Source: Azolla caroliniana (taxonomy: Eukaryota; Plantae; Polypodiophyta). Taken from it: 64,000 bases of DNA. The number at the start of each line of letters is the position of its first letter. Position 1 is the first letter of the stretch. The DNA is taken from contig JBHGNT010000071.1 in NCBI GenBank assembly GCA_043228905.1, positions 57,589 to 121,588 of the forward strand. Reading direction: 5' to 3'. This document shows positions 9,301 through 57,382 of the stretch, piece after piece. Made by a program: the position numbers and the translations under genes. Below the pieces are notes generated by a model. It ran no database searches, was not told the DNA's origin, and worked only from the letters and a program-made list of their open reading frames with translations.

Positions 9301-9309
9301 TAACCAGTA

Positions 9310-12300
9310 CATTTCGAGAGCAGGCTGCAATATGCATGGTTTTTGCATGTCACGCATAAACAAAATATACATCAGTCCGGCACTAGAAAAATTTGGAACC
9401 AATGTTGAAATCATTGCAGGGTCAGCCTACTCTGATCATATGCCGATTAAGATAACGCTAGAAACGCAGAGGAGACCACCAAGGGACTGCAATGTGAGGA
9501 TCAACAAAAAACTTTTTGAGGATGTGGAGGTGAGTAGAAATATAAGGCGTATATGGGAAAGAAATTTGGTTGGATGTGGCGCACTTGATAAACTTCGAGG
9601 GAAGATTATCGAAACGTCAACTTATCTCCATAAGGCGACGAAAAGTAGGATTACGAGGTCTAAGGAGGAAGAAATGTGTTTAAGGAGATCAATAGCGGCT
9701 GCCCAAAGGCTACTACAGAAAGATCCCTGATGCCAATGGTCTAGGGCAAGCCTCAAGGCTGCCAGAGAAACCTTGCAATGCTTGATTGATTGCATCCAGA
9801 AATACGATGTTATTTAGGAGTTCGGCTGCATGCTGGAGCAAAAATGGGGATAAGGTGAATAAACAATTTTTCATGCATAAACAACCTAGAACAAACTATA
9901 GCTACAATCCGAAGCTGGTTAAGGAAGATGACTCTATCCCGAAGGATATTTCAGAGATCTTGGAGGCAGTCACCTCAAACTATCATGAGTTGCTTTCGGA
10001 TAGTTACAATAGCCCCGAACAACCTCCTATGATAGAATATGTGCTTGAGGGAATGCAACATAAAATTTCAAATGCGGCACAAGCTAATTTGGTGAGGCCT
10101 CTCTTGGAGGAGGAGGTGGCTGATGCTTTGGCAAGTATTTGTAGAACGTCCTGCCCAGGCTCCGATGGGTTATCAAGAGATTTTTTCGAAATTTTTTGGG
10201 ACATAATCAAGGTAGATTTGGTTGATGGGCTAAAGGAGGCATGGGATGTTGGGTACTTACCTGAGCAATTTCAAGAGGGGATGATATTTCTAATTCCTAA
10301 GGTACAAGTTGTAACAACTGATGCAAGGCAATGGAGACCAATCACGCTGCTAAACACAAGATAAAAGATATTTGCTAATATACTAGCCAAGAGGGTAAAA
10401 CCCTACTTGCAAGAACTAATCCATGTTGGACAAACAGGGTTCATGGAAAACAGATGCATAATTGATAATGTGTTGACATTTTGGGAGGCGATTGCCTTGG
10501 CAAAGAAAACCAATCAACACATTGCTTGTCTCATGCTTGACTTTGAGAAGGCATATGACAGAGTTCAGTGGCCTTTTTTAGATAAAGTCATGGAAAGGTT
10601 GGGTCTACCTTTAAAATGCCGATCAATTACGCTAGCCCTTTACAAAGGAAGTTCGAGTAGGGTGTTAGTGACAGGGCATCGTGGCCCATCGATTCCATTA
10701 CGTAGGTCTGTTAGACAGGGGTGCCCGTTGGCCCCTTATCTTTTTTTATTTATTACAGAAGCATTCTCTTTCTTTTTGAACAGATCGGATGCAGGAATAA
10801 GAGGTTTAGCTATCCCACATGTGAGTAAGGAGTTGCTGGACTCTGAGTATGCAGACGACACTATGCTTTACTTGCAAGGGAATGATGCTAATTTACAGAA
10901 GGCGGAAGGACGGATTGAGTGGTTTTGCAATGCATCAGGGGGGAAAATTAACTGGAACAAAAGTAGAGGATTCTGGGTAAGTTCAAACCCACGACCGCTA
11001 TGGTGTCCCAACGTTGATTTTCAATGGGTCCCCAATGGCATGGCTGTTAAGTATTTGGGTTTTTTGGTGGGAGTTGAGACACCAAAAAATCAGCAGCTTG
11101 AGCAGGTCAAAGACAAAATTAGAAAAAAGCTTCAGTTGTGGGCATCAGTAAAGCTCTCCCTTGTTGGTAGGGTTGTGGTGGTGAACCATATTTTGTTGGC
11201 CACCATGTGGCATTCAGTGGCATGTTGGATGTTAGACAAAGCCTGCATAAAAAATATTAAGGCAATGGTGAGAGGCTTCTTGTGGTCGGGTAGAGACAAT
11301 GAAAAGGCATCAGCTAAAGTGGCGTGGGGTTGTTTAGTTAAGACAAAGAATGAGGGAGGACTTGGACTGGTGGATCCGGTTCACCAAAGTAAGGCTCTAC
11401 TTGGTAAGCTTTTAGTGCGAAGTTTGCAACCCGGACCAAAATTGTGGAAGGTGCTCCTTAGGAATAGAGTTTACCTTTGGTGTCCCAGGAATGGTGGTCC
11501 TTGGCAGGCAAATACATGGTGGTTGTTCAGCCCAGCTCTAAAGTTGAAAGAACCGGCTAGCATGGAGGATAGAGTGGTTCGCGCCATAATGAAGGCATGG
11601 TCAAGTTTAAGAGAAGGGTTAGTCTTAATGCAACCAAAAACACTAGATGAACAACTACGACAACCGTTGTTTTGGAACCCTAGGATTAGAAGTGAAGATG
11701 GTAAGATGCTTGGACAACAAAAGTACTTGCCTTGGGGGAAGATGTTAGGGTACAAGATTCAGTCGGCACACGATTGGGAGGTTTTCAGCATGAAGAGGCG
11801 GACAAGTCATACTGTTAATTGTAGGATTATTGGAAGACTAGCGAAGGTAATCCAACTGATAGATGGGGTTGTTGATGGATTGGATAAGCTGCCTGCGGAA
11901 GAGACAGTTTGGTCGGGCTGGTTTGTAGGTGAGGGTGACGCACAACTTATCCGTGGTAGGTGCTCAACTAGCGAGGATCGTTTGTGGGGTAACCGAAGTT
12001 CTTTGACAGATGATGGTAGGTGGATGGCAGTGCGGGTGGCAGTGTTGGAGGGTAAGTGGTGGCAATTGAACCCAGACCCTAAGACCCTGGATCATGATTG
12101 TAAAATATGGCTTTACGATAATAAGCCCTTATATGATTTGGAGTGGGACCCATTGGAGGTTTGGTGGCAGACACCAGGAACAAAAAACTTTTTCAAGTTT
12201 TTTGAATACAATACCAAGCTAGGAAGACGAATCGTTGGCTCCAAAACCGTGGATGTTGGAATGATTCGCAACAGTTGGAAGGATAAAGGCATTTCAAATG

Positions 12301-13264
12301 ACGATTTGAAGTCGGTTTGGAGGAGACTATGGGCATTGGATATGCCAGAAAAAATTAAGGCTTGGTGGTGGCTTCTTAGCCACAAGGCGGTACCTGTAGG
12401 CGAGTGGTTGAGCTCCCGTGGTGTTGAGGCTAGTTGTAAGTTATGTGGACAGGCTTTGGAATCAATCTCTCACTGTTTTTGGAATTGTACAGAGGCGATT
12501 AGCATTTGGAGTAGAAGCCTTTGAATTGTGGCAGCCTGTGGTGTGAAAGGGAATGTTGTGTGGGGCTCAATACAAGGGTTGTCCTTAAAAGGGGAAAGCT
12601 GGAGTGAACAGTTAACCCACAAGGACATGGATTTATAGTGCAGGGCGGTAGCGTGTTCCAAGGTGATGGTGTGAGGCCAGGCACAAATTCTGAAATTTTT
12701 GAGGAGATTTGGCTTATGGTGGCCTGTTTGACAGCCTGGCACATCTGGATCAGATGTTGTAAGGTTGTTTTTCAGCAGCAAAAGATCTCATGCGGGGAGA
12801 TGATGTTAAATATCTAGTTTGATCTTGTGGCTTGGTTGCACGGTCGGTATGATTCGATTCAAGGGGATTCAGAAGAAGCAGAAAGGGCAAGGTCAAAGTT
12901 CTTGCTGAAATGGAAGAGCTCTCCCATGCTAGTCAAATCTTCATCCAGGCCTAAGTGGAATTACCAAGCACCTAGGTGGTTGTTTCCACCAATGGCTCCC
13001 AATATTGTACATGGGTTGTAATTATGTATGTATAGCTGACACAAACGTGTGTCAGGGAGTTGTAGAGTAGGGGTAAAATAGGGTTTAATTCAATTTTGCT
13101 TGAGTTAAGGATCGGTTGAGTTTTTTTTGTTGTTTTTGGTTGATAGTTTTGGAGTTGTTTCTCCAAGTTGTATATGTTGATCCCATTGTGGATTTGGATA
13201 AACTTTGTTGTATTCTATTTGCTAACTAATGCGAAGTAGTGGTTTTTTTTTTTGGAAAAAAAAA
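9310..13264 (+). mobile_element. 5'-truncated L1-type LINE (element B): end of endonuclease, RT, zf-RVT, 3' UTR and short A-tail
   Basis: SRINKIY..SDHMPI (APE end), CPGSDG, WRPITLLN, QTGF, LDFEKAYDRV, RQGCPLAPYLF, YADD, KYLG, GGLGL, CKLC..ESISHCFWNC. In-frame stops at 9728, 10362 and 12522, frameshifts near 9800 and 12610, GT-rich 3' UTR, A9 at 13256-13264. Confidence 0.95.
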
Positions 13265-22697: not shown

Positions 22698-24717
22698 ATG
22701 GCTTGGATCAATGGCGTTATCATGGGACCTTATCATTTGGACAGCATGATCCAAGCTCGAGAAGAAGATACTGCCACAAGTCTTCAATTACCTCATCATC
22801 ATCATCATCATCAATCGCTGCAAGGGTTTGTCTCGTCGTGTAATTCGACCTCCCTTCCGAAAGGTAATTAATATAACTGTCGCCCATGATTATGAATCAA
22901 AATATACCATCCTGGTTTCCTTTGAATTCTTTTAAGATCGAACCTTAGGATTTAACATAAATGGAACAGTTTATGAATTTAGAGACCGGCAGTTTCAGAA
23001 ACGTTAAGATCTTTAGGATTTGCTCCGCATCCTCGTAGTGGAATTCAAGGGATCAAGGATGGGTTAATCATAGAATTCAAAGATTGATGATGGGTTGGTT
23101 TAAACTTTATACTCCTGTGCCTTGTTCACCCCCCAATCAGGAAACTAACTAAACATGCAAAGGATGCAAGTACTAACCATGCCCTAATCACATCCATTAA
23201 CCGTGATTCACTTACTAATCACACCACTTGTGCAAATCCATTGATGCATATGTTCTCTATTATATGTTGTTAATAACTCGGGACCACATGATGACTTTGT
23301 AGCTCGACCAAGTAGAGGTCTCAATAAGAGAACCCTTAGTCGATACTCCATAAAAGATGACAATGCATTCAATGACGACGAATTGCTATACAACCTCGGT
23401 GATCATGATTTTATCGATGACATGACAACTAACGATAATCCATCCGAGAAGAGACGCCGCCTCACAATGGAGCAAGTCAACTTCTTAGAGATGAGCTTCA
23501 ACAATGATCTCAAGCTCGAACCTGACCGGAAAACTGAAATTGCAAAGCAATTAGGGATTCGGCCTAGACAAGTTGCGATCTGGTTCCAAAATAGGCGAGC
23601 CCGATGGAAGAATAAGCAACTCGAACAAGACTATGATGCCTTGAAGGCCAATTATGAAGCTCTAGTTAAGGACAACGACAATAGAGCTAAGGAACATGGC
23701 GCCATTGTGGAGGAAAACATGAGGTTACTTGCTGAGGTCAAGCTAGCTAATCTTTAATTCTTCGTTTTGTTCCATTACCTTTCCATTTTTCCTTATAATC
23801 TTGCTTTTAAGCTCACAAGTGATTTTAGGCCATTTGTTTTCCATGTAATGAGATTAAATGTCCCACTTCACCTTTCTTAGAGGTTTTAGCATTACCATAA
23901 GTTTTGTAAGCAAGGTATCACACATGTGAAAACAATAGTCATCTTGGAAGATTTTGGAATCTTGGATAAATATAATCATATCATTCTAGAGTGTCCTCGA
24001 AACTTTGGGACAACCAAAACTTAAGATCTCGTGATAATTTCATTGTAAACATTAAAGAACATTCTAAAAGCTTTTGGAGGACTCCTTGATATTTTAAGGA
24101 TGTGTTTCTTGACATGAGGTTCTCTTTATACTTAGTTGTGTGTGTGTGTGTGTGTGTATAGAGGGGACATTTCAATGTTATGAATATTTGTAGTCCTTGG
24201 AATTACATAAGCTCACACACACGTTAGGTGGGAAAATGTCTAAAACTTATTGTAATATAACATTTGATACCATGTTTTGTCATTATCTTGCTTTCTGACA
24301 TATGTCATGTGTTTATAGGTATCGCGATTAAAGAGCTTGCTAGAGAAGCAACAAATTAACATATTTTCTGATGATGCATTAATGGTTAAAAAGGAGGAGG
24401 AAACAAGTGGGAAGTCAGAGCTGACATATTACTCCCCCACAAAGTACTCTGGTGAGGATCAAAGCGATGATTCAGGGCAAAGCAATGAATCTCAACCTTC
24501 TTTGGATGAAGAAGAAGAGTTAAATCCATCGGTAAAGATAGAAGAGGAGGAAGGAGAAGGTGATGATTTGCATTTAATACAAAGTGATGATATTCTATTG
24601 TTTCATCAAATTGCAACCACCCATGGCAATGGCATGACATGCATTAATGACGATTCATACTTGATATTCAACTCATGTGAAGACCAACTGGGTGGGTTCC
24701 CATCATGGTATGGTTAA
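22698..24717 (+). CDS. Homeodomain-leucine zipper class I transcription factor, about 332 aa, 3 exons
   Basis: Exons 22698-22863, 23303-23736 and 24319-24717 join in phase at GT-AG sites. [18 protein letters not shown]...[22 protein letters not shown] plus zipper; acidic C-terminus ending FPSWYG (AHA-like). Confidence 0.93.
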
Positions 24718-30569: not shown

Positions 30570-32498
30570 ATGGCAGCTGAAGAGCTATTAGAGCTCAAAT
30601 TCCGCCTTTATGATGGTACTGATATTGGACCTAACAAATATGCACCGGAAACAAGTGTTCTTACCCTGAAAGAAGCCATTCTTTCTCAGTGGCCAAAAGG
30701 TACAACATATGTTTTTAACCGTTATTCGCAAACTATGATTCAAAATGGTAGAATAAAAGGAAATTTTAATTTTAAAATCATATAATCATAGAGGCGTAAG
30801 TTGTAGTTTCTTCTATTATTGGTGCTAAAGTTTGGTGCAAATTTTATTTACTAAACTAAGCCAAGAGTTGCCTAACTGTTTGTGTATGAAGTTCTAGAAA
30901 TGGGTTTATGAGGCAAGAGGCATCTTCCTTGCACAATATTAAGTGACAGAAGTCCTTTTTATGGGAATAGGTTAGTTAATAGAATATTTTTCAGTTTTGT
31001 ATCCCTAATTTTCATAAATGATTTCATAATCTTGCAGTGCAGCTCCACTTTTCGACTCTTTATAGCATGTAGGATATCCCAAACCTAGTTACTGTAGGTT
31101 GCATATTTTGAGCTAAAAGGCAACCTGAATGCATCTAACCACTTCCATTTAGGTACAATAGGCAGATTCATATTACTGTTTTGTTGTAGTTAGATTGCAG
31201 ATTAGTTTGACTATTTTGTGCTAATTGAGTGTCATCATGTCCCCAGAGAAAGAAAATGGTCCTAGGACTATAAGTGATATGAAGTTGATAAATGCGGGTA
31301 AAATTCTAGAGAATAACAAAACCTTAGCTGAATCAAGGGTGCTGATTGGCGAACTTCTTGGAGGAACAATTACGATGCATGTGGTTGTGAGTCAACCGGA
31401 TTTCGAAAAAGGGGGTAAGTATATTTATATTCATAGTTAATGAGACACTTCCGGATTATACAAATTTCATCATGATGTTTGTGTTCAGAGTTCTGATATG
31501 CTGTGTTACATTTGAGTGGAAGTTGAATCTCTGAAATTGTGCTTGTATCATTGTTTTTCCCAAATAGAAAAGGTCAAACTTCACCACTGGCGTCAGATAT
31601 TAAATTAGGCTTCAATATTTGTTCCACTTGACACTTTCTCGAAGAAGGCTTGTTTTTGTTTCTATCTTTTTGATGCTTTATTGTGATTTATATGTATCTA
31701 TAAACCCCCCAAAAAGTAATGATAACTGGCAATTATCTAAAGAGTGATTGTTACATTTTTCACTGACTTTTTACTAATAAGCAAGCTAATCCCACATGGA
31801 AGCATGTATGTACATTGAAGTTCTTTCATCTTAGAGTGACCATTTGGGATAGATTTAAGATTAATCGTTTGTCCTTGTTTTCTTGACAATAATATTTCTT
31901 AAGTGTGCCCATATGACCACTTGGGCTATCTTTAGTCTGTATGGCCAGTTGGGCTGTATTTTTATTTGCAGATTCAAATCATTTTCATATTTGTTCCTAA
32001 CATCTATAACTTACAGAGTTCCACATAGGCATAGTACTGGAAAATGTCAATTTTCTTTCCTAATTTCCCATTGAATAAATTTTGCGAGAAAAAAAAGTAA
32101 ATAAATTATTGTTTTTATTAAAATTTCAAAAAAAAATTCATCCTTTTGTTGTAACTAGTGGCACTTCTTAATTTTTCTTGCACTCTGTTTTCTTCCATCC
32201 TTCAATCATACCAAAACATGTCTTTTGGGGAATGGTATGCTATGAAGTTCAAATTTGTTTTTAGATATTTAAAGATTGTCTTGTTGCAGCTTAATATCGT
32301 AATTAATACTTGGCTAATGAGACAAAAGAAATATATTTCGTGCGCTGATGTCCAAAAATTGAGTTAGATAGTTGAACAATGTTTCTTTATAAATGATTTT
32401 ATGCAATTTCAGTTTCAATCAATAAATTTACAATTTCCTCAATTTGTTAAGCAGGTTCATTAGGGAAGAAGGGCTGTGCATCATGTTGCATACTTTGA
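30570..32498 (+). CDS. MUB: Membrane-anchored ubiquitin-fold protein, about 113 aa, 3 coding exons
   Basis: Exons 30570-30699, 31247-31414 and 32455-32498 join in phase. ELKFRLYDGTDIGP...SQWPKEKENGPRT...KLINAGKILENNKTL...TMHVVV...GCASCCIL*, ending in a CaaX prenylation motif. Confidence 0.95.
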
Positions 32499-34128: not shown

Positions 34129-35836
34129 TCAACAATAGCTGGGTGTGAAGGTGAGACGAGAGGTGCTAGTGCTGAAGGAGAGAAGGAAACCTTGCTGTTG
34201 AATGTTTCCAAGTATAGATAAACCCCATGATGGAGCAAATGCAAGGCAATAAGTTGCGGCATCATCATCGATACCGATAAGGTAATTCGCAGTGGGAAGG
34301 CTAATTGTAAGGCTAATTGTAGCTGTAGATGGGGCTGAATTCTTGCTGCCTATCCTGCCAGGGGCATTGTCTGTCCCCATTTCCACCAAATGGAGGTCAA
34401 TAGTCGGCACACTGACCAACACCATCCCCGAGAGGTCGTAGCAAGTGTCAAATATCTCCATTCCTCCATCCACAAGCCTCAAATCTGTTGCTGCCTCCTG
34501 AAACGCCTCTCTCAATGTCGTAGGCGACCTATTCGAGCCGAGTCACTGTCGTCCCTGAATCCACCACAACACCGCCTTCACTGTTCTCCGACAACCCCCG
34601 TATCGCCGATGATATGGGCAGCCGTCTTCCTCCCACACTGATCCCTTCCAACTCAATGTAGTAGAAGGTGTCCATCCTCTGGTTCCGTAATAGCGGTGTA
34701 CTCACAGACTGTCGGTCATCTGTAGGCGTGTTTTCGCTGGATCCTGGATCGCCCGAGTTATTCAATCCGAATGCCAGAGTTCCTCCTCCATATCCCATCG
34801 CCGGAAGACAGTATGCAAAATTGCGATGGGAAGGACATGCTGCCAGCCCCAAGCCCGAGCAAGCCAGCAGAGACACTGAACCGCCCCTCATTATCATGCC
34901 CGCATCCGATCCCTATCCCTGACACCACTGCCCCACTGGAGAAGGTGGGCATCTCGGTCACTAGGTTCCCAACCTTGAATGACCCGTCGCCATATTGGAC
35001 CTCGTACGTGAAGCTCTGGATGCAGGTGTGGAGCGGGAGGTGGGCACAGAGTGGCGAGGTGCACAAGATTGGGCGGAAGGACGAGGAGGCAGAAGGCCGG
35101 AAAATGGGGTCAGGTTGGGGGTAGCATTGATTACAAAGAGCACATTGCAACCATGTGAGGTCACTAGCAGTGTCCAGGATCATGTAGGTGGGCAAGGGAT
35201 TTTCACGAGGTACTCACCGCTGCCGCGGTTTGCACCAGACGAGACCAGACTATTGATCGGTGGTGGTGGTGGTGGTGGTGGTGATGATGAGGGGCGGTGC
35301 CGGTGCCGGTGCCATTGGCAGTGTTGATCAAGCGATCCATGAAATGTAGTGGTCAGACCTGGCAGCATGGCTGCAGATGATAAGGTTGGTTCTATTGGGG
35401 CAACAAGGGGTAATGATCCGGCACGAGGGCTTCCTGAACCCATCCTTAACAATGACAAATTTTCACGGGCCCACCTCACGGCACCAAATATAGCTTCCAC
35501 TTTCCCCTTATCTCGCTTCAAACGATCCATCCTTATACTTGCTATATGAGTCTTCATGTGATTGCTCAAGGATTGCACTGATGATGGCACTATCACCACG
35601 CTATCCAAGACCTCAGTATGCCATGTCCACGTTGCATTAATTCTTTTAAGTGAGAGATTATAGGCAGTGTGGGATCCTCTTCTAGCATCTCCAAAGATCT
35701 CTAACTTTACAAACTGTTGGTACGTATAGGGAGGTTTATTGGTTTGACTAAGCTTATGAGCTATGGTAGCACAATGAGCAGTAAGTCTTAGAAGGGACAA
35801 GAGCAAAGAAACCATTGCCAACTTGAACTTTTCCAT
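34129..35836 (-). pseudogene. Intronless A1 (nepenthesin/ASPG1-like) aspartic protease with three frameshifts
   Basis: Signal peptide from the ATG at 35836; SGANRGSGEYLV | LDTASDLTWLQC..YGDGS..GCGHDNEG | FAYCL..FYYIELEGISVGG..VVVDSGTTVTRL | FDTCYDLSG..YCLAF..SILGNIQQQ. The four segments are offset by frameshifts near 35200, 34875 and 34520; first catalytic motif reads DTA instead of DTG. Confidence 0.88.
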
Positions 35837-37373: not shown

Positions 37374-38490
37374 TTAGCATTGGTGGGTGACACACTTGTC
37401 AATGTGGAATCGGGTCTCCTCAAATCGGATGCAAGTACAAGCATCATGAGTGGTAGTGACACGGGTGCGAAACATGACACTGTGGGAAGCATCATAAGAG
37501 GATCGTTCAGAAACCAGGGTGTCACCACGCACAAGGGGCCGCTTAATGGATGGTGGAGGAAGACCAATGAAGCTAGTTCCAGAGACACCAGAACCTGGCA
37601 CAGATGGAACTGAGGGCTTCCACTTGGGTCCTAATGGTTTCTTGTCTGGATCTGTAATGCCCCCCTTAATAGGAGGAAGTTCAGATGCTGGGTTTTCTCC
37701 CTTACTTAGGGGGCATTGGCTTGATGAGTTGTCATGAGCACCATTAGATAGGGGTTCTTCACATACCGCTTTTCTCTTTATCTTCGTCTTCTCACAAACA
37801 ACATCACCATGGGTATTACCATCATCGTTACCAGCATTGCAAGTCTTCAGTTCCTTATTATTTTTCTTATTCTCTTTCTGCTTTGCATCCTCGTCCTTAT
37901 TTTCCATAGCTGTCCGGTCTCTACAGCCCTCTTCTTCTTCATTTTTTTCTTCTTCCTTTGCATTATCCTTCTTGCTCTGGATAATTTGCAATGGTATATG
38001 AACCTCCAAGACCTCTGACATAGGTTTCCTTTGCTTTGCTTTTCTCAATACCTCTTCTTCATCCATCTCTTCTCCACTCACAATCACCACCATTTGATCC
38101 TTCCCTACCATAACTTCCTTAACTCCTGCTTCCATGTAAACCTCTTCTCTCAGTAAAACCCTAACCCGCATATACAAACATAGTAAACCCTAATGTGTAG
38201 GCAACGTACATTAAGTCCTGCTATTTTTAATGTTTATTTTACCTGCAACTCGCTTCAAATCTTTGCAAATACGAGATCTGCAACCTTCACAGCATCGGAG
38301 ATCGACCTTGAGCGAGATCTTCTGAAAAGAGGTATAAGAAGAAAAGGAAACGAGTTAGGGTTTGTTTTCACCACACACACAAGAAATATATAGATGAAAC
38401 ATTCTTCGTTATTTATCCCTGCATCCAAATTAGGGTTCTCACCATGGCTTCACGTACAACTTCTTCTTCGTCTTTCTGAAGCTCCACCAT
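37374..38490 (-). CDS. Heavy-metal-associated (HMA) domain protein, HPP/HIPP-like but without a CaaX motif, about 292 aa, 3 exons
   Basis: Exons 38490-38443, 38321-38243 and 38125-37374 join in phase. KISLKVDLRCCEGCRSRICKDLKRVAGVKEVMV..QMVVIVSG is an HMA fold with a CCxxC metal site; K/E-rich linker; ends CVTHQC*. Confidence 0.88.
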
Positions 38491-40524: not shown

Positions 40525-43500
40525 TCAATGATGGCTATGACCATGACTATGATCATGATGACAATGACTATGATCATGATGGCTATGACCATGATCATGA
40601 TGGCTATGACCATGACTATGATCATGATGGCAATGACTATGATCATGATCATGATAATGACCATGGTCATGGTGGTGGTCATGCTCATGATCATATGGTC
40701 TAGGAAATAGTAGCTTCAATCGGAATGCATCAACACCATTCAAGTAATATTTGTGAAGTCTCTTGGCACGAGTAAATCCAAGATTTCCATACAAGGCAAG
40801 GGCGCCCTTGTTTGTCACTTCAGCCTCCAATGTCACCTGCAGGCTCAAATTGAAATTTATGAGTGGGTGTTAACCTTTATAAAGGAGAAACCTATCCAAA
40901 CACAAAGAATATATACCTCTTCACAACCTGATTCATGCATAACTTGTATCGCTCTCGTTACAAGTTCAGTTGCTGCATCCAGCATGTCACTTGAGTGAGA
41001 TTTTAATGAGTTTTCTTATACCACTAAATTCAATGATGAATTTAAACATACTAGAATCTCATACCTCTCAGTACAGGTGAAATAGGAAAGCAAAGAAACA
41101 AATGCACAAAAAACTCAAATGTTTTTCAATTTAAATAATCAAGAACAAAATTTCTAGTAATGAGTATTGGCTCTTTACGTTCTAACCTCATTGTCTCTTG
41201 CGGCAATCGGCTACATTTAGTGTCGCTTCTTCCCACAAAAAATACATTCAATATCAGATCAAGATTTTGGCATAGTCTGTCTTATATTAATGGTATCTTT
41301 TTCGCCGCACAAGCAATTAAGAACTTCATCCCTAAAAGCCACAGGAACCAAGTATAAATTTTCTAATATGATAGAATTGTGAACGCAAGATTAGGGCATG
41401 GCCCATCTCACACGACATCTTTTCCCCATGTATTCTTAGCAAGACAATGATGTCTCCACCTCACAAAAAATTAAGGACTTACTCTCGAAAACCAGGCAGA
41501 AACAAATACAACTTCTCTATTATGATAGAATCATAAAAGCTTTGCACTGACAAAAGGTTGGAATGATGCATACTTGCAAGTTCCCCAAACCTCCAAGATC
41601 CTCAATTTGTACATGGTAGATCTCTCATCATCAATGAGTAATCATTCAGTAATAGATATTACTACAACGATTAGGGGATACGAGAAATGGAAAATTACGG
41701 TGGAAAAAGTGGGAAATCGGGCATTGTTCTGTTAAAAAGCCCATTCATCTTTCAGATCATGGTGTTCAATAGGGAATCATCTGTACATCATAGAATCCCA
41801 TGATCATAGCTCGGCTTAACAAGCAAGAATCTCCAAAAAAACACTGCTCTCATTTGCAAAAACAGGAGGCAATCAGACTAGAGAAAACCAAAAGAGAAGT
41901 CTTTCATTCCAGAACATTTAGTGCCACTGCTTATATTGCAACAATCTTGAAATCTGACATCACATCAACAACCATTAGAAGTGTCTGCACTTGCCACAAC
42001 CACAACTACAATACGTTTACCTCATTTAGTTCACAAACCACAACTAGATTATGCTTCACCTCATTTAGTTCTCCTATAAAACTGAAAACTGTCTCAATGA
42101 CATGAACTACCTACAGAAAAGCGCAAGCTAATGTGGAAGTTCAAAGAAATGAAGCAACATAACAGATGCGAAGAAAAACACCCATGGCAAGAATGAACCA
42201 TGGAAATTAACATGGGAATGGTGAGTATGGATGTTGTCAGTTGGTAACCTTAGTCAATGGAGGGCAGAAGGTTGTGTGTTATAACCCCCGTTAAGTTCCA
42301 CATAGTCATCTAGTAAAGCTAGTGCAGTCTGTAAGAATTTAACCCATGTGGATGGGTTAATACAAACATAGCTTACAACCAGGATACAGTTCATTATACG
42401 AAAAAATAATAAGATTATAAAGAGTTAGGGAAACTTAAGTTGAATGCTTAGTAAAATCATAACAAAAGATTACCTATTCCTCTTCCTCGAAATGGTTTTA
42501 CAACGACTAGCATCGCAATATATCCTCTGAATGTGTTTCTATGTTGACCCATTTTACACACAATGGTTCCAACACAAGTGTCTTCATGGAAAGCCTGAGA
42601 TATAAAGTAATAAATCAAAGAAACAAACCACCACCTTCCTTGGGAAGTTGCTAAAAATAACCTCAGTTATATCATTATTATTATTTATAACTTATTTCCC
42701 ACATAAAAAACAGGTACTAAGTTTCTCTTTAGATCAATTTTATTATTTACCAAAATGATCCATCTTTCTGGCATCTAATGTAATAATTCTAACACTGTAT
42801 GTTTAACACAAAGGAAAGGCTGGTCAAGCACGTTTTAATTTTGTTTGCAGCAGTGCCAAACTCATCTCTTTATTGCTTAGGTTTTTTATGTCACAAATCT
42901 CATGAAAGAAGAAGGTTTTTCTAAATCATTCTCCTTCGGTATTGTGATCAAAGCAACCATTTGAAACGTTTGTTACATGTTTTCTATACCCAATCAATTG
43001 AATCGAAACCCCACAAATTACTAATTCTTCCATGAATACATCGATTTATTTTGTAACAAGGAAAAAATCTCTTCTAATTCTTCCATGAATACATCAATTG
43101 ATTTAGTAACAAAGAAAAAACCTCTCCTAATACTTCCATGAATACATCAATTGATTTAGTAACAAGGAAAAAAATTGTCCAAAACACTCCCAAGTTTTCC
43201 TTCACGTACCTGACTGACCCTAAGTTTTCCTTGATTTTACCCAAATGCACTGGAGATTTTCCTTTATTTCTTGAAATGAAATCACCACCCAGGGGAAGGT
43301 ATCGAAAAATGTTAACTAGCTTAGATTGCAAAGTGTTATGGATCTCGTGAATTCAGAGTGACAAGCATAGGGTGAAGTGAGGATCTGTAGAATGTGCTCA
43401 GAAAGGCCAAATGGTTCGAAGGAGAAAGGACCTTTTGTTGAGACGGATGAAACTAGCCAAAAATTCTCATTTCACATGAAATCAGCGACAATATAGATGG

Positions 43501-43988
43501 TTCTGGATGATGCCCTTGAACACCCTCGTCTCTAGCAATTGTATGTACTATTTTAAGAGTGCATGTTCCTTATACAAATCCAAGTGAATCAAAACTCCCT
43601 GATACTAGTACTTCCATACATACATATGTTGATTTGGTGAAAAGGAAAAGGAAAAAATCCTCGAGGTACCCCAAAGTTTTTCTTCCCCCAAATGCCTCTT
43701 GAGTTCTCAATTGTTTCGCTGATTGACGTACCATTAAGAAATGTATATACGAGAGAAAGAAAGAAAAAAGAGGAGAAAAGTCACGGACGTGCATACCATG
43801 AAGCAGAGTTGTGGCCAGATGGTGATGAAGTAACGGTAAGTGAAGATAGAGTAAGGCTCACTGAGTTCATCGTCAACGAGTGCCATGATCGACGGCAGCT
43901 GTTCTTCTCCTTCATAGCTCACGTAACGAACGGCGGTCTGCGTCTTTCCAGTGATCTCCTCTACTGCTGCGACTGCTGCATCCACCAT
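40525..43988 (-). CDS. NAA30: N-alpha-acetyltransferase 30 (NatC catalytic subunit, MAK3), about 226 aa, 4 exons, His-rich C-terminal tail
   Basis: Exons 43988-43797, 42594-42474, 40972-40917 and 40836-40525 join in phase. [21 protein letters not shown]|[25 protein letters not shown]|ATELV..GCEE|[42 protein letters not shown]. Confidence 0.96.
43021..43175. repeat. Tandem repeat of about 54 bp, 3 copies, in NAA30 intron 1
   Basis: CTAAT.CTTCCATGAATACATC.ATT.ATTT.GTAACAA.GAAAAAA at 43021, 43074 and 43127; a related single copy near 43605. Confidence 0.9.
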
Positions 43989-45254: not shown

Positions 45255-46000
45255 GCCCTAAAGGAGGTGTTGGCGATTTTTTATCAAATTGAAGAAAGTG
45301 CAGGTAGGGGACTTTCGTAAATTTCCTCAATGCAATCACATCCCTTGGTACCCTAGATTTGGGGTTGTCTATCCATGTAAGTATAATAAAATATGGTTAT
45401 GAATCAAACATTTATGTAGCAAGTGCTTTAGTTTATATGTATCCAAACAATGGTTGCTTGGAGGATTCACGTGTGATGTTCAACAAAATGTTCCATCCCG
45501 ATACTATAACATGGAACACAATTATTGATGGATTGGTGTAGCATGGTAATCCCCAAAAAGCATTAAAATGCTTTGAAAAAATGAAACAATAGAATGTGAT
45601 GGTAGATAACACAACATTCCTCGGTGTTCTTTCAACTGTAATCACGTTGAACTTGTGGGTGAATGATGGCATCATTTTAGTTCAATGAATTATGTTCATC
45701 ATATCTCACCAACAATAGAGCATTATGCTTATATGATTGATATCCTTGGTACATCGAGACATCTTGAAGCAACAACTAACTTGTTACAAAAGCTTCATGA
45801 TGAGCCTTCTTTATCATCATGGATGGTTATTTTAAGTGCTTGCCTACTTCACGAGAATGTTGATGTGGCAAAAGAAGCAATTGAATTTATCATCAAGTTG
45901 AAGCCACAAACAAAACTACGTATGTGTTGTTATCTAACATATATGTTGTCGAAGAGGGAAAAAAAAAGAAAAAGCAAGGTTTTTTTTTTTTCTTACTTAT
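45255..46000 (+). pseudogene. Degenerate C-terminal fragment of a PLS-E class PPR gene
   Basis: SIHVSIIKYGYESNIYVASALVYMY..GCLEDSRVMF..WNTII, stops at about 45539 and 45590, then PTIEHYAYMIDILG..W..ILSACLLHENVDVA (E motifs); frameshifted. Confidence 0.85.
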
Positions 46001-48789
46001 CATTACCTAGAAAGATTGGCTAGGGTCATATGTAATATTGGACTATTTTGTATATTGCCTCTGACCACTTTAATTTAAATACCAATGGAGGATATTTTTT
46101 CATAAAAGAAATAAAAATAGCAAATGAACCAAAGCCAATATATTGATCTAAAATAATCAAGATTAGGAAACACGGAGATCATATGGCAAGCAAACATTTC
46201 CAATATCAATGGGTTTGCGACATATCCCAAATATTGACATGGATGTGAAAACAAGGCCGTGGTGTCTTGATAAGATATCGAATGCATGACTAGTTCCGAT
46301 AATTTAATGGCCCAAATTGACCTTATCCCAAATCTAGTCTTGACAGACTCTTTATTATGCCCAAGTAAGTGAAAACTAGTTAATGAAGGAAGCCCCCCCC
46401 AACTTGAAAACTGGATTGCTACTTATAAGATTGGCAAGAGAACCGAACATGTGACTGGCTCCGGCCATCCGATGTCTCCCATGTTGGCCATATCCCAAAT
46501 CAAGCGTTGATCGTATTGTCTTTGTTGTGCCCGAGTGAGAGCACAGTGGCTAGTGACAGAAACCCCGCCATCGGAAATCGGGTCGGTACTTCTTATTATC
46601 AGATAAGGTCCCCACAAAACCCTGTTAGAGATCCTTCGTAGGGATGGTAATGGTAATGGTATTTCTGTAGTATGGTATGCCTCCATTTCTGTCACTGATA
46701 ACAAACAAAGCATTTTCTTCATTTATCTCTATCATATGCATAAGTGTTAACAACCTTAAATCACCCACACTCGCGCTCGCGCACGCACAAATACGGTATC
46801 AGACAGAAGAAGAAGAACACGATGATTACAAGGAAATCTGACACGTCTAGAGATTACAGTATATCTGATGGTATACTCATTGTTGATCATGTGTCTAGAA
46901 GAGCCGAATCCAACTCTCTGCTAAGTAAGTGTCATTCTTTTCTCATTTCTTCCTCTTCCTCTTCCTCTTCTCCAGTCTCCTTTTCTTTTTCTTTGTTGTT
47001 GATTTAGATATATGTATACTCTCTATGTGATGACCTTGTATATGAATTTGTTGATATGTTTAAGGAGAAAACTGGTCATTTGAATGTGAAACCAGCTCAC
47101 ACGGTGAAAAATTCTTCTCTCTCTCTCTCTCATCACATTTCATCCTTTCTTGTCTTCTTCGGTTAAGATCAAATGCCTCATAATTCATCATTCTAATTTA
47201 TTAACTTTTCGGGTGTATGTTTTCTCTTAGTAATTCATTGCTCTAATTCCTCAGTCTTTTTGGGCAGAGGTGTTTTGCTTAATAGTTCATCAGTCAAATG
47301 TCTTGACTTTTTTGGCCGAAGTTGCATTAATTTCTTAGTGTTTTTGGTTGATACTTAATTGCGTTATTTTCTTAGTCGTAATTCTTGTATTTATGGTTTT
47401 TTTTGATTTTTTTTCTCAATAAATGCATTTTGATTCACTGTTTTTGGGTCAATTATTTCTTAGCCTATTCATTTTTGGGGATTCTTTAGCAGCTATTATT
47501 CTTGTTTCTGTAGGGTTGAGCACCATTTTTCTAAGTAAGCTTATTGCTGCTCTTTGTTTTTGGATTGAGTTTCTTTTGCTTACTAGTCTGTGGCCGGCCT
47601 TCAAATGAATAAATTAACACTTAACAATCTGTGTTTCTCATTCCACATGCAGCCCTGAAAAGTAGGCTGATTGTATTTAGAAGCGGCAACTTCACAAAAA
47701 TTTCTCTTTCTAAAGAAAAAGTAACTTCAAAATTTCTTGCTTTTTGGAAGAGCTATCTCCTGTAAACTCATTGCTGTTTCTCGTTTTTGGATTTAGGTTT
47801 CTTGGGTTCTTCATTTGTGATTAATGTTATGTTTTTTTGTAGGACTTTGCACAACCAAATATTAAGGAGGCATTTGATAAGTGTATTGGCAAAGGGGCCA
47901 CAAGAGTCATCATCTCCCCCTATTTCCTTTCTCCTGGTATACATTGGGATAGGGTATGTATAAAGGTCAATATACACACACACTAGAAAATAGTCGTAAT
48001 ATATTTCTTGAATATTTTTTCCTTAGCATTAGACATTGTGGTAAGTTATTGGGTATTGAGTTTATGAATGCCAACAACCCCACACACATGAACAATAAGA
48101 TGAGATACATTCAATTCTATGTGAGGTAATCATTTAGGTTAACTGATTCTTGTACAAGAAAGAACCTTATGGTTAAGCCTTTAACTACATCCACTGAGTT
48201 GTATGTGTATCCTGCAGCAAGGAGCACATGAGGGATACTTTACTTTATAGTAAATCCTTGCCATTGTCACACTTAAATGCTCTTCATTATATATTTCTAT
48301 TCGGATGGAAAGCTAGACAAGTTGAAACAACATGGAAGTTCATGATACCACCATGCTAGATTCCAATGAACTTTTGGACAGTGTGCCAGTGCTAGATGTT
48401 GAGCTCATGGAAATGATAAATCTAAATGGCCTGATGTTGATGATAACACCATCACCGTGCATTTTCATGCATGGGTAAGGCATAACACTGTTGATCTGCA
48501 CACAATCATTGAAGGAGCAATTGATTTCGTTTTGCCATTAGTTCAATATATAATGAAGATGGTGGATGTCTAGAAAATTCTTTGCAATGACTTTGAGACC
48601 AATAAAAAAACTGAGGTCCAATTTCTCTAGCATTAGTAGTCCTTTGAGTAGATGAGGGATGGTAAGAAGGCGGAAAAGTTAAATCACAAGGATAAAATGC
48701 CTTTGAGATCAGTTAGCAATACTTGAGGTGATGAAGACAGTCATTACTTTCGTGGGAAGATGATGAATAAACAGATAGAATGGAATTCC

Positions 48790-49320: not shown

Positions 49321-51101
49321 TAGACAAATTATTTGACTGAGGACCCAATGAGCCTTGAACACTTAGATGTAGCCGGATATGGAATGCTAATCATTGAGTG
49401 GGTAGATAGATTCCAAGAGTCTATACAGATTCATTGAACAACTAACAACTTCTATGAACATCGTGAATGTGTTTAGTTGTTCACCCTAACAACTTCTATG
49501 AACATTGTGAATGTGTTTACTTGGTCCTTTCACGTAGTGCTAGTTTGAATTTCATTGTCAAATTTCTTTAAGTTGTCTAGTTGAAAGTATTAATCATCTT
49601 ATTCTAGAAGCCATTACCAATATGAGAACCACCTACCTTCAACCCATACATTGCCGATTAGTAAATTGCTTGATCCTCTTGGATTCTGCGTCCTCCATTA
49701 ACTTTGTCATTCCCCCTTTTTCAAAGTTGAATCAGAGAGTTGTTGAGTTTCGGATAGATGAATCTTCCTATCTTCACAAAAAATCAGATTTCTATCAACC
49801 TCAACTTGATGACTCGCGTAGTACATCTTCTAATGTTTGGTGTTATTACACTATATGCATCGACGGGTGAAGTTTTCTTTTTTTCCTGCCTTAGGCTTTT
49901 ATGGACTTAAGCTTTCAGCTTTTTCTAACTTGGCGAATCTCAATGGAAAATCCCTCATGCTTTTGATTAATTCCTCAAGTAGTAATTATAGTTCTTTTCG
50001 TTTTTCTTCTCTCCCTCACGCATTTGATTCTTGTGTGAAATATCCGCAAGGAAATTCTTTGTCCATGTGCATGTTTATAGATTGTGGATGTGCTTATGTT
50101 CTTTCAACTTTGTGTAATCAACTGAAAGGTAAAGAATGAATGGAACATACAAGTAAGTGTGCTTTTGCTCTACTCGTTAAAGTTCTTGGAATAATATGAT
50201 ATGTTCTCCTAGGGAATTGATCATAATCTCTATGCCATGATCATCTTATGGTAGAAGGGAGTGCATATGTCGTTGCAATTAGTTAGACAAGGAAAGACAA
50301 TTTTAGTAGAGGGCTGACAAGAGTATTGCTGATCAAACGTCCACTCAAATTTTATTTCTATCAAAAAGGGCAAGGTGGCAAATGTTCAACCCCACAAATG
50401 TCAAAGTCAAGTCGTTTTATATTAGCTAACAAATCTACACATTTATTTCTTTGATTTTTCATCTAGTGTGAAAGAGCTAGACTTTTACTAGTCACAAAGG
50501 TGGTAGTTTGATGATAGATGATACCAAAGGTATAATTCAACAATTCCAAAATCATAAGGGGTAGCCTTGATATTACGCAAAACATGGGGTTATTACCTGT
50601 GATTTCCCTTATGTGATTAAATGTAGGTAAAATCATTGTTATACCATTACCTTTGCCAATTTACTCCCATATACATATATATGCTGGTGTTTTCAAACAT
50701 TACCAAAACAAGTGGAATAATTTCTTGATTAAGTAGCAATTCATAAGTTGATTAAATAATTCATGATCAATAATCTAAATAATTATGCAGCAGACTAATT
50801 AGTGATGAGTTGGTAAACTTCCATTAGAAAACAAAATGTAATTAGAACCAAATTAATGTCTGATTAGGCCTAGTTAATTTTGAAGGGTCTTTTGGTACAT
50901 TTTAGAAACTGAAAGCCAGGTGCAAAAGGTAAGGGTACTTTTTCTCATTCTTGGCTATGGTGAAACGATGTCGACACTAAGGTAAGAATCCGATTATCTC
51001 ACAGTCCTTTTTCGTTTTAAAATCCTAGAAGCAAGTTTTCTTTTTTAGGGTTAAATAAGGAGAAGGAGGCTTCCGTATAGGAAAAAAAACATGAGCAAAA
51101 G

Positions 51102-53086
51102 ATGGACAAGGAGAGCTTTCATCACAATTATCGTGCATTCATTGCCTTATTCAAGGTTTGTGCAAAGAAAAAAGACCTTCAACAAGGCATTAAATTACAT
51201 GCCGAAATTTCGAAACAAGTTATACTCGAAAATAACCCATACCTAGTTAGTGCTTTGATCAATATGTATGCAAAATGTGGTGCCTTTCAAAAGCAAAACA
51301 AGTACTCGAAGACTTACCAACTCGAAATTCTGTCTCTTGGAATGCCCTTATTTCTGGATATGCACAACAAGGGCATGGTCAAAAAGCATTGGATTGTTTT
51401 GGAAAGATGCAACTAGAGGGCATTTCACCCGATGCATTCACTTTTACCTCTATCTTGAAAGTTTGTGGTAGCATAGTTGCTGTTGAAGAAGGACAAATAA
51501 TCCACAACGAGATTGTGGGTAGAGGCTTGTTAAAAAAGGATGTTGTGCTTGGCACTGCCCTGGTAGATATGTATGCCAAATGTGGTTTGCACAGAAAAGC
51601 ACAACTAGTACTCGACGAACTTCCTGAGAGAAACGTATTCTCTTGGTCTTCACTAATTATAGGGTATGTCGAACAAGGTCAAGGTCACAAAGCATTGAAT
51701 TGTTTTGAGCAGATGCAAAGTGAGGGACTCACTCCAGATTCAGTAACATTTATTTGTGTCTTGAAGGCATGTGGGCAAATAGGAGCTTCAGAGAAGGGTG
51801 GAGAAATCCATGAAGAGGTTTTGGATAGAGGCATATTGGAGAAGGATATTGTGCTTGGTAATGCTTTGGTGGATATGTATGTGAAATGCGGTTTACTTGC
51901 GAAAGCACAGAGGAACACATTAATTGTGGCATATGCTCACTTAGGGGAAGATCAGGAAGCATTGACCTGCTTTGATCAAATGCAAAGGGAGGGGCTATCT
52001 CCAGACACGGTCACCTTTCCTTCCATCTTAAAGGCTTGTGGTATCGTAGGTGCCATTGATAAGGGCAAACAAATACATTTAGATATTATGCATAAGGGAT
52101 TTCTGAATAAAGATGCTGCACTTGGAAATGCTTTGGTGGATATGTATGCCAAATGTAATATGTTTGGAGAGGCATGGAAGCTGCTGGAAGAGCTTCCTTG
52201 CCAAAATATCGTTGCTTGGAATGCCTTGATCTCAGTATATGTTGAACAAGGGCAAGGTCATGAAGCACTCAAATGCTATCAAAAAATAGAGAGAGAGGGG
52301 ATCTCTCCAGATATAGTCATGTTTACGTGCCTCCTGAAGGCATGTGGCAGCACAGGAGCCATAGACAAAGGCAAAGAAATTCATGGAGAGATTGTGAGTA
52401 GGGGTTTTCTAGAAAAAGACATTGTTCTTGGAACTACTTTGGTGGATATGTATGCCAAATGCGGCATGCTTGAAAAAGCACAAGAAGTGTTAGAGGATCT
52501 TAGTATATGAGATGTGGTCTGTTGGTCAGTATTGATAGCAGGATATGCTCGAAAGGGGAAAGGCTTAGAATCGTTGACATGTTTTAAAAGGATGCAAAGC
52601 GAAGGTCTTTCTCCGGACGAAGTCACACTCTTATGTGTTTTGAGTGCATGTTGTCATGCAGGTCTGTTGGATGAGATTCAAATGCTACACAGGGATATGG
52701 TAAAGAAATATGGTGTTACTCCAAATGTAGAACATCATGCTTGCATGCTTATGGTTTATGGATATGCAGGAGATTTTGACAAGGCAGTGTCAGTGATTAA
52801 AGTGATGCCATCTTGTTATCAGTCTCCACTTTGGCTTGTACTGTTGGGTGCTTGTAGAAAATGGGAAAATGTAAAGCTTGGGAGGTTAGCTTTTATTAAG
52901 ATTATAGAGTTAGATAATCACTGTGCTGCAGCTTATTTCCTCATGGCTAGTATTTATACAGCTGCTGGAATGCATACAGCTGCAGAAAATGTTAAATCCA
53001 TGAGATCAACAGCTGTTTCTCAGGATAAACAAAGGAATATTGTGCGGCTTGATGCAAATGGAAATATTCTTCTGTTGTCTATTTGA
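51102..53086 (+). pseudogene. PLS-E class PPR gene disrupted by a 1-nt frameshift (about 51283), an internal deletion (about 51912) and an in-frame TGA (52508-52510)
   Basis: Repeated WNALISGY / ISPDAFTFTSILK.CG / VLGTALVDMYAKCG triplets; ORFs 51275-52510 and 52514-53086 share a frame; ends with EHHAC..W..LLGAC..AAYFLMASIY (E motifs). Confidence 0.9.
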
Positions 53087-55286: not shown

Positions 55287-55699
55287 GACACCCAACAACT
55301 TTCATTGGCATTGTGGGGAAAACAAATAAAAGTAATATGTTCACACGACTCATTGGCCATCAAGAGAAGAACATTGTTGGGGGGAGGGGAGGAGCAAAGT
55401 GCTTGTGGTGGCTGTCCCAACATGTGACCAAAATATCTGAAGAAATCAATAAGAAATGGACTTCTAAGTCTAGAGGCAGTGAAAGGTAGTCATGACTCTT
55501 GACTCATGAGTGAGGGAGTGTGTATTGAGAGTCTAGATTAAATTGGGCACATTCTTTTTAACAGCCCTCCACAAAATGTTTGACACTGTAGCCTAGATTT
55601 TCAAACTATGTATATGATTGCGTTTACACTTTTAAAACCTACGTCCCTATCCCTATCTCTTGGACAGATTCCAGAGCAGCCTCTGCAGATGACAGTAAT

Positions 55700-57382
55700 A
55701 TGGTAGCTCTTCCAGCTACTCGCTTCAAACGAGAATTCTCCTTAAATCTGAAAGAACATTTATTAACCCACGCCAGGAATAGAGCCTCACAACAGGTGCT
55801 AGATTATTATCAACGCTTGATCTCTTCTTCAAGTATAAAGCCTGATGAATATGTTTTAGTTGCTGCCATCAAAGCATGTGCATGTAAAGGAAACCTAATT
55901 CTAGGTAGGTACATTCATGTCGATATCATAGATGCAGGGCTTGAATCTCATGTGTATGTAGGAAGTGCACTTGTTAGTATGTACGTGAAATGTGGTAGCC
56001 TTGATGATGGTGAAAAAGTCTTTGATGGGTTATCAAGATATGATGTTGTTTGTTGGAATGCATTGCTTTCAGGCTACGCCTATCATGGACATATGGAAAA
56101 GATGGTTCAATGCTTTGACAAAATGAACAAGTCTGATCAATTTCAGCCCAATTTGGCTACTCTGAATGCATTGATTGCTGGATATTGTCGAGATAAGCTC
56201 AGCCACAAGGCTTTGCAAGTGTTTACGCAAATGCAACAAGAAGGTAATTGGATGCCTGATGGCGTTACCTATGCAAGCCTTCTCAATGCATGTAATTGGA
56301 TGGAAAAAGCTCATGATCAAGGCAAGATGATTCATGTTTTTATCATAGAGTGTGGGTTTGAATCTGATGCCTTTATCGCGAATTCCCTTGTGAATTTGTA
56401 TGTAAAATGTGAGGATTTCAAGCATGCAATTCATGTTTCCAAAAGAGTAGAAAAAATGGACTGTGTGACATGGAACGTTTTAATTGGAGGCTATGCAATG
56501 CATGGTCATATTCAGGAAGCCATTGAGGTTTTTAACAACATGCGTAAAGCGGGTATTTGTCCTGATCTTGTCACGTGGAACTCTTTGCTAACAGGATGTG
56601 TACAACATGGCTATGGTCAGCAAGCTTTTATACTCTTCCAACAAATGCAGGAACAGGGTTCAAATTCCGATAAGGTCACATTTGTGAATTCCTTAAAAAT
56701 ATGCTCCTTAGTAAGTTCTCTGGATCAGGGAAAAGTGATTCATGCTTGCCTTCTAGACACTGAAATGTGCTGTAATCTATTTGTTTGCAATGCGTTGATT
56801 GACATGTACGCTAAATGTGGGAGTTTAGATGATGCCTCTAGACATTTCCATGCCTTATCAAAGAGGGATCTAGTGTCTTGGAATACAATTATTGCATCAT
56901 ATGCCAGTTACAGACATCATATGATGGTATTTGAATGCTTCAGGGATATGCAAATAGATGGGTTTCAACCAGATGAGATAACTTTCCTCTGTGTTCTATC
57001 TGCATGTACCCATATGGGATTTTCGGAAATGGGTTGTATGTATTTTATGACCATGAGAGAATGTCTTGCCACATCTTGCAAGGTAGAGCACTATAACTGC
57101 ATTGTGGACTTATTGGCTAGGAAAGGTTGTTTGAAAGAGGCCAAGTCCCTGCTTGGAATGATGCCATTTGAAGCAAATCTTCGAGCATGGACTTCTTTAT
57201 TGAGTCATTGTAATACTTATGGTGAACTAAAATTAGGAAGGCATTGTTTTAATCAACTACTTTTGATCGATAACAAATATGCCTCAAGTTATGAACTTAT
57301 GTCAGCCTTGTATGCGCAGATGGGAATGTGGGAGGATGTGGTCCGAGTTCAAGAATTGAGAAGACGTGTCAATGCCTCATAA
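55700..57382 (+). CDS. Intact intronless PLS-class PPR protein with C-terminal E motifs, 560 aa, putative organellar RNA-editing specificity factor
   Basis: Uninterrupted ORF of P/L/S motifs (VGSALVSMYVKCGSLDDG, WNALLSGY, PDEITFLCVLSAC, EHYNCIVDLLAR..W.SLLSHC..SSYELMSALYAQMGMW); no DYW domain. Confidence 0.92.
   Translation: MVALPATRFKREFSLNLKEHLLTHARNRASQQVLDYYQRLISSSSIKPDEYVLVAAIKACACKGNLILGRYIHVDIIDAGLESHVYVGSALVSMYVKCGSLDDGEKVFDGLSRYDVVCWNALLSGYAYHGHMEKMVQCFDKMNKSDQFQPNLATLNALIAGYCRDKLSHKALQVFTQMQQEGNWMPDGVTYASLLNACNWMEKAHDQGKMIHVFIIECGFESDAFIANSLVNLYVKCEDFKHAIHVSKRVEKMDCVTWNVLIGGYAMHGHIQEAIEVFNNMRKAGICPDLVTWNSLLTGCVQHGYGQQAFILFQQMQEQGSNSDKVTFVNSLKICSLVSSLDQGKVIHACLLDTEMCCNLFVCNALIDMYAKCGSLDDASRHFHALSKRDLVSWNTIIASYASYRHHMMVFECFRDMQIDGFQPDEITFLCVLSACTHMGFSEMGCMYFMTMRECLATSCKVEHYNCIVDLLARKGCLKEAKSLLGMMPFEANLRAWTSLLSHCNTYGELKLGRHCFNQLLLIDNKYASSYELMSALYAQMGMWEDVVRVQELRRRVNAS

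Follow-up and report, generated by a model that had tools for sequence, protein, structure and literature searches.

The window analysed here, a stretch of 64,000 nucleotides from the fern Azolla caroliniana, carries on its minus strand what its sequence identifies as an intact four-exon fern NAA30/MAK3 gene, encoding the catalytic subunit of NatC, whose last exon continues into a histidine-rich tail. The tail is in frame and is present in the spliced transcript. It had been described as an oddity of one gene, and is rather an extreme case of a trait found throughout seedless plants. The fern tail is a real feature on a known enzyme; the part worth experiment is the ancient NAA30 tail together with its mirror image on the NAA10 of seed plants. 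That the tail is a disordered, multi-site metal-binding appendage, kept for its composition and not for its length, is a reading on which we are evenly divided.

The NAA30 Gene

NAA30/MAK3 acetylates Met-hydrophobic N-termini and binds NAA35/NAA38 and the ribosome. In the Azolla gene, the spliced model comprises four exons (the last at 40525-40836) and three GT..AG introns, with one open frame of 226 residues (Table 1). Exon 1 holds the start codon and the LSEPY motif with the Leu27 and Glu29 equivalents, and exon 2 provides the GNAT core and the first part of the acetyl-CoA motif (RxxGxA). The full motif, RxxGxG/A as defined in the available part of PMC3958825, spans the exon 2/3 joint. The four residues given as crucial in yeast Naa30 in the accessible portion of PMC7608589 (Leu27, Glu29, Glu118 and Tyr130, yeast numbering) are all kept, aligning to Leu42 and Glu44 of exon 1 and to Glu4 and Tyr16 of exon 4.

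Table 1. Coordinates of the NAA30 gene and of its HMA-like neighbour in the window.
Feature	Position	Strand	Basis and remarks
NAA30 exon 1	43797..43988	-	GT..AG model; joint in contigs of 4/4 public runs; alignment to yeast and human Naa30
NAA30 exon 2	42474..42594	-	Pfam PF00583 above cut-off; contig joints; GT..AG model
NAA30 exon 3	40917..40972	-	Contig joints and GT..AG model
NAA30 exon 4, catalytic part	40702..40836	-	Glu118 and Tyr130 equivalents; last beta strand
NAA30 tail in exon 4	40528..40701	-	58 residues; covered by run contigs; degenerate CATnnn minisatellite, length-variable
NAA30 stop codon (TGA)	40525..40527	-	TAA (still a stop) in run X1, change at 40526
HMA-like gene	37374..38321	-	CxxC exon 38243-38321, followed by exon 37374-38125; based only on pattern and splice sites

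The identification as the NatC catalytic subunit, made in a preliminary description, was borne out, as the protein is closest to Naa30 rather than to Naa10, Naa20 or Naa50 and its catalytic residues are intact. The best match in both sequence and fold was NAA30/MAK3 (human 7MX2, S. pombe 7L1K, S. cerevisiae 6YGA; Arabidopsis AT2G38130), and the window exons matched Naa30 chains first when compared with the sequences of structure chains. The orthologue P0316 gave E 6e-55 to Naa30 vs 1e-12 to Naa10, and a fold search with its model also led to Naa30. In a tree of 37 catalytic cores, the window NAA30 grouped with those of Ceratopteris and Adiantum (97/87). According to the available part of PMC9692967, Arabidopsis NAA30 can by itself rescue NatC mutants of yeast, and photosystem II efficiency depends on it.

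The solved Naa30 chains, of 150-159 residues, end at or near the last strand, without a His/Cys tail. The Ceratopteris orthologue, modelled with AlphaFold from an alignment of 50 sequences, showed a confident GNAT core, with a mean pLDDT of 83 and an rmsd of 0.9 A to human NAA30 7MX2. Past residue 174 this model, which is of the orthologue and not of the window protein, had no secondary structure and a pLDDT of 50-71. On this orthologue model, the NAA30 tail is predicted to lie outside the GNAT fold and to be disordered.

Composition and Repeat Structure of the Tail

The tail consists of the 58 codons (40701-40528) that follow LKLLFP, namely Arg-Pro-Tyr and then 55 residues (40692-40528). The preliminary description was right about these 55 residues, their 31 histidines and their place in the same exon, but skipped Arg-Pro-Tyr. 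The 58 residues include 31 His, 9 Asp, 7 Ser, 4 Gly, 2 Cys, 2 Tyr and 1 Glu, so that Cys is far scarcer than His. There are 24 HxH pairs, and the pattern H-x-C-x-H occurs twice; it was also present in 10 of 14 other tails checked. Against a background of 1207 stop-free six-frame stretches of at least 30 amino acids in the window, the runner-up His counts per 55 residues were 14, in the antisense frame of the tail repeat, and 13.

Tandem Repeats Finder reported the tail as a degenerate minisatellite with periods of 6, 21, 27 and 48 and 68-83% matches, and the tail is therefore repeat-built at the DNA level, which corrects its earlier description as unlike a plain microsatellite. The 16-residue unit quoted there does occur twice. 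The use of both His codons, which had been offered in the same argument, is correct in that CAC is present; with 29 CAT vs 2 CAC codons the argument is thin.

Searched alone, the tail had no match among PDB sequences or in Pfam, and an ESM Atlas search gave a best score of 0.87, under the level for a lead. The last NAA30 exon reached E 0.009 and 15.7 bits against Pfam Zip, for which the cut-off is 35.1 bits. This is a compositional likeness to the His-rich loops of ZIP zinc transporters, well below the cut-off, and no transmembrane transporter is present here.

Transcript Evidence and Length Variation

The introns were removed in contigs of four public runs, in which the joints were seen. Exon-joined contigs entered the tail in three of them (to 40597 in X1, 40620 in X15 and 40633 in X3), and the contigs of the public runs contained no joint inside the tail; the RNA status of these runs is guessed or unknown, and the whole tail is spanned by no single contig. 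Two of the outcomes that had been named as fatal, a tail spliced out or private to this assembly, were thus not encountered: contigs joining the upstream exons continue into the tail, and other species, metagenome loci and public runs carry it.

A second NAA30 copy, on contig C1, has a tail of 81 residues with 44 His and 3 Cys. Because the 70 kb around it (C1:36398001-36468000) align colinearly with the full length of the window at 97-99% identity, the C1 copy is, by sequence, most likely the other haplotype, with a recent duplication as the alternative. The window's own contig, C71, likewise has the appearance of an uncollapsed second haplotype or a recent duplication. Neither a third NAA30 nor a second NAA10 was found in this genome.

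The two NAA30 tails of one genome thus differ by 23 residues (58 vs 81). A k-mer simulation predicted a doubled 46-base contig for the long tail form only, and exactly this was seen in X1 and X15, while run X2 contained a piece of 99 bases that is specific to the short form. Both repeat types are therefore present beyond the assembly itself. Three metagenome loci (L010-L012), with 86-92% DNA identity, encode tails of 61-62 residues with 33 His, in which the units are reshuffled. All length changes among five close variants were in frame, and the tail lengthens or shortens as units of 12-69 bases are duplicated in frame. Tandem units with copy-number variation, the marks of a coding minisatellite, were found in this fern and its close relatives and not in moss-type loci. 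The exact length of the fern tail is unstable, and its extreme length is mostly the product of repeat slippage.

Distribution of the NAA30 Tail

A survey of NAA30 C-termini, which had been proposed as a check, found the tail to be common to most seedless plants and largely gone in flowering plants. The search was blind to the tail (core residues 1-150 as the query), and clades were assigned from source names, leaving 17 unnamed NAA30 rows out of the clade counts. Among the best 120 of 1144 matches, 8 of the 10 named seedless plants had a tail with at least 10 His (median 14.5), and none of the 92 named angiosperms did (median 2, maximum 8). The NAA30 tail of Ginkgo has 6 His, and NAA30 of Picea has 1. 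Further His-rich tails were those of Adiantum (33 His), Diphasiastrum (32), Physcomitrium (13) and the alga Netrium (27). His/Cys-rich NAA30 tails thus occur at the same position in mosses, liverworts, lycophytes, ferns and one zygnematophyte alga, with sequences that cannot be aligned.

Four moss-type loci (L013, L014, L016 and L018) have a His-rich tail without any tandem repeat, and two further moss-type loci have only a 25-base tandem repeat; slippage therefore fails to explain the trait outside this fern. Comparisons of Sphagnum tails gave replacement:silent changes of 4:2, 4:2, 2:2 and 2:0. Together with the length gap in one genome and the 29 CAT among 31 His codons, these ratios argue that constraint on the tail sequence is weak, which fits selection on composition, or none at all.

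Across eukaryotes the trait is uncommon: the best 150 entries listed included 143 full-length representatives, and 5 of these had at least 8 His in the C-tail. Most animal-type NAA30 representatives, the type being judged from shape, have a long N-extension and no C-tail. Four non-plant loci (L073, L081, L088 and L089) and the protein P0171 have NAA30 tails with 16-25 His and GGCC. These resemble the NAA10 motif of seed plants described below, and repeated convergence is possible. Non-plant NAA30s with His-rich tails, several with GGCC, comprise these high-GC loci (L073 at 10001-10530) and the proteins P0171, P0220 and P0272, one nematode included.

A Mirror-Image Tail on NAA10

NAA10 served as a control for whether NAT tails are His-rich generally in seedless plants. 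The tails of this genome's NAA10 (98 residues of Lys/Glu type), NAA20 and NAA50 contain 0 His, so His-richness is no lineage-wide habit of NAT tails. The control also brought out a mirror-image tail that the preliminary description had overlooked. The query was the core of the fern NAA10; 3 unnamed rows were dropped from the tally, and 41 unnamed rows were left out of the clade counts. Among the best 120 of 4874 matches, a His...Cys-Cys tail was carried by 58 of 61 named angiosperms, with a median of 10 His, and by none of the 10 seedless plants or 7 algae. Gymnosperm NAA10 carries a shorter form with 2-4 His and the same Cys-Cys (9/9 named sequences, 6 genera). Seedless-plant NAA10 tails are charged Lys/Glu tracts.

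When the two proteins were paired by species or genus, more His lay on NAA30 in 8 of 9 seedless pairs, with 1 tie, and on NAA10 in all 22 angiosperm pairs. Neither tail is His-rich in Riccia sorocarpa or Closterium, and Picea is low in both (1 on NAA30 and 4 on NAA10). His occurs on NAA30 and NAA10 alike in Nymphaea (7/8) and Kalanchoe (8/8), and NAA10 of Chara has 10 His without Cys-Cys. The swap is one NAA10 gain and one NAA30 decay near the origin of seed plants, not many events, and the species counts are therefore not independent.

The NAA10 tail of seed plants thus sits on a paralogous enzyme, in the same place past the last strand, and again combines His with Cys. It differs in being short, with a fixed Cys-Cys and a poly-His run, and in having the opposite distribution among plants; dispersed HxH and HxC on NAA30 stand against poly-His and GGCC on NAA10. 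On this comparison, a separate origin of the two tails is most likely.

A conserved His-run followed by G(G/S)CC was noted directly after the catalytic fold of seed-plant NAA10 (P0370-P0489, P0525-P0531), and merits separate study whatever the fern tail does. This genome's NAA10 (L090:1444-2184) has a single exon and encodes a repetitive Lys/Glu/Ser tail; the near-identical NAA10 protein P0370 is 22 residues shorter, so that NAA10 tail length also varies. Just before the NAA20 exons on contig C17, about ten copies of a 160-base tandem repeat were seen (L116:450-2020).

No description of a His-rich tail on NAA30/MAK3 or NAA10 was found in the text of a mainly open-access literature, and the available parts of PMC9692967, PMC11735805, PMC3958825, PMC4530475 and PMC8902505 do not mention one. 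The accessible part of bioRxiv 2021.02.01.429250 offers structural context only. Published plant NAA10 alignments very likely display the poly-His run even where the text is silent about it. The literature examined describes no metal input to plant N-terminal acetyltransferases. A candidate metal-binding tail that alternates between the catalytic subunits of NatC and NatA is directly testable in standard models. Native tails of this kind would stick to nickel resin, and experiments that pull down plant NatA or NatC by a His-tag can be misled by this.

A Possible Metal-Binding Role

The tail, predicted to be disordered, has 24 HxH pairs, nine Asp and Cys residues with His on either side, and would be expected to chelate several transition-metal ions, Zn first and also Cu or Ni. 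By analogy with known His-rich tails, binding of Zn, Ni or Cu in vitro is highly probable. The closest functional parallel is SlyD, in which an unstructured tail rich in His, Cys, Asp and Glu binds up to 7 Ni in E. coli and reversibly inhibits its own enzyme, according to the available part of PMC7055735; SlyD tails of E. coli and H. pylori are variable and bind Ni and Zn at multiple sites (accessible parts of PMC7055735 and PMC3292732). The likeness lies in a His/Cys/acidic C-terminal tail on a housekeeping protein-processing enzyme, and is one of working only. The tail has no PDB or Pfam match, so no homology is implied, and the fern tail stands on a GNAT domain, whereas SlyD is built of FKBP and IF domains; the fern protein does not belong to the SlyD family. 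SlyD also has established clients (HypB, hydrogenase), and the NAA30 tail has none on record.

On the SlyD pattern, the tail would bind metal at several sites with low-micromolar affinity while attached to an enzyme that works on nascent chains. Metal load would reshape it and so buffer local metal or tune the activity, stability or ribosome residence of the enzyme, and selection would act on composition rather than length. The tail itself would be dispensable for catalysis. This is probably the case, because yeast NatC works without the 17 C-terminal residues of Naa30 (available part of PMC7608589).

The recurrence of Cys beside His in NAA30 tails speaks for a metal role, and the fact that most eukaryotes do without such a tail speaks against it. 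Whether metal binding is the selected role in the cell could go either way. It seems somewhat unlikely that the NAA30 and NAA10 tails share one job, and an effect of metal on acetylation output is doubtful. The most far-reaching version is a metal-sensing tail on one ribosome-associated NAT, the job having moved from NAA30 in seedless plants to NAA10 in seed plants, with Zn or Cu tuning acetylation; we consider it quite doubtful. If it held, the direct, co-translational tuning by Zn or Cu would reach a few substrates in ferns and mosses, and in crops it would extend to the largest share of the proteome. Were metal load to tune NATs at all, micronutrient status would be wired to the N-terminal fate of proteins. 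A zinc-supply link through ZNG1 and methionine aminopeptidase is conceivable as well. A metal screen of C. elegans natc-1 was set aside as support for a sensor, since the available part of PMC4199503 concerns an auxiliary subunit and reports broad stress resistance with unchanged zinc content.

The tail may instead be tolerated filler, an old, drifting, His-biased end that a CAT minisatellite has inflated in this fern, with the NAA10 pattern a coincidence. Repeat periods of 6-48, two tail lengths in one genome, the reshuffled units of L010-L012, the loss of the tail in angiosperms and the dispensability of the yeast tail in vitro all agree with this, and for the exact length of the tail it is almost certainly right. 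As an explanation of the trait it is unlikely. His/Cys richness persists between a zygnematophyte alga and the ferns although the sequences cannot be aligned, and moss loci have it with no DNA repeat; of this genome's four NATs only NAA30 shows it, and non-plant NAA30s (L073, L081, L088, L089, P0171) also have tails with His and GGCC.

Poly-His directs proteins to nuclear speckles, and the composition could have been selected for a property other than metal binding, with the tail acting as a pH-titrated, low-complexity segment that steers localisation, condensate entry or contact with RNA or the ribosome. The computed net charge (simple pKa sum) swings from +17 at pH 5.5 through +2 at pH 6.5 to -8 at pH 7.5. 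Given the charged Lys/Glu tracts at the end of seedless NAA10, NAT tails may serve more generally for electrostatic tuning, and the location of NAA60 is set by C-terminal segments, according to the available parts of PMC9692967 and PMC11735805. Such a role leaves unexplained both the fixed Cys-Cys on seed-plant NAA10 (58/61 and 9/9) and the Cys that recurs beside His on NAA30, and we regard it as rather improbable.

An artefact, with the tail spliced out, mis-assembled or private to the assembly, is very improbable and largely refuted: the unequal copies in the assembly, the guessed RNA status of the runs and the want of a single spanning contig leave it some room, but in three runs contigs that join the exons continue into the tail, the public runs show both repeat types in line with the k-mer simulation, and three metagenome loci carry comparable tails.

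The HMA-Like Neighbour and Other Features of the Window

The gene that begins about 2 kb downstream of NAA30 had been called an HMA protein. It has a CC-x-x-C metal motif and a long acidic and Pro-rich region, and its frame ends without the C-terminal CaaX box expected of a HIPP. The CxxC pattern and the exon layout, judged by eye, agree with the name, but Pfam does not confirm it, with no match on the single exons. A tblastn search with the neighbours' frames found nothing at E 0.01 in 80 related loci (29 of at least 10 kb; mosses, angiosperms and others), and an HMA-motif scan of these loci and the window fired in the window only. Synteny of NAA30 with an HMA gene, which had been suggested as a check, was therefore seen in 0 of 80 related loci, in a test of low sensitivity, as the exons are short and divergent and the sequence of the three closest loci stops before the neighbour's position. 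From the sequence comparison, the HMA neighbour is probably a coincidence, unrelated to the tail.

Several other features were noted in the window. From motif patterns, we take 9203-12524 (+) to be a LINE-type reverse-transcriptase element with in-frame stops, 23245-24717 (+) an HD-ZIP homeobox gene and 30571-31416 (+) a membrane-anchored ubiquitin-fold gene. An aspartic protease (TAXi_N/TAXi_C) at 34129-35213 (-) lies across three frames, which suggests frameshifts or a pseudogene. A CbiX/SirB-type chelatase exon was identified at 47843-47953 (+; Pfam PF01903, E 3e-9). The PPR genes at 45308-46023 and 51081-53086 (+) are interrupted by stops or frame changes, and a further PPR gene at 55592-57382 (+) has an open frame of 596 residues.
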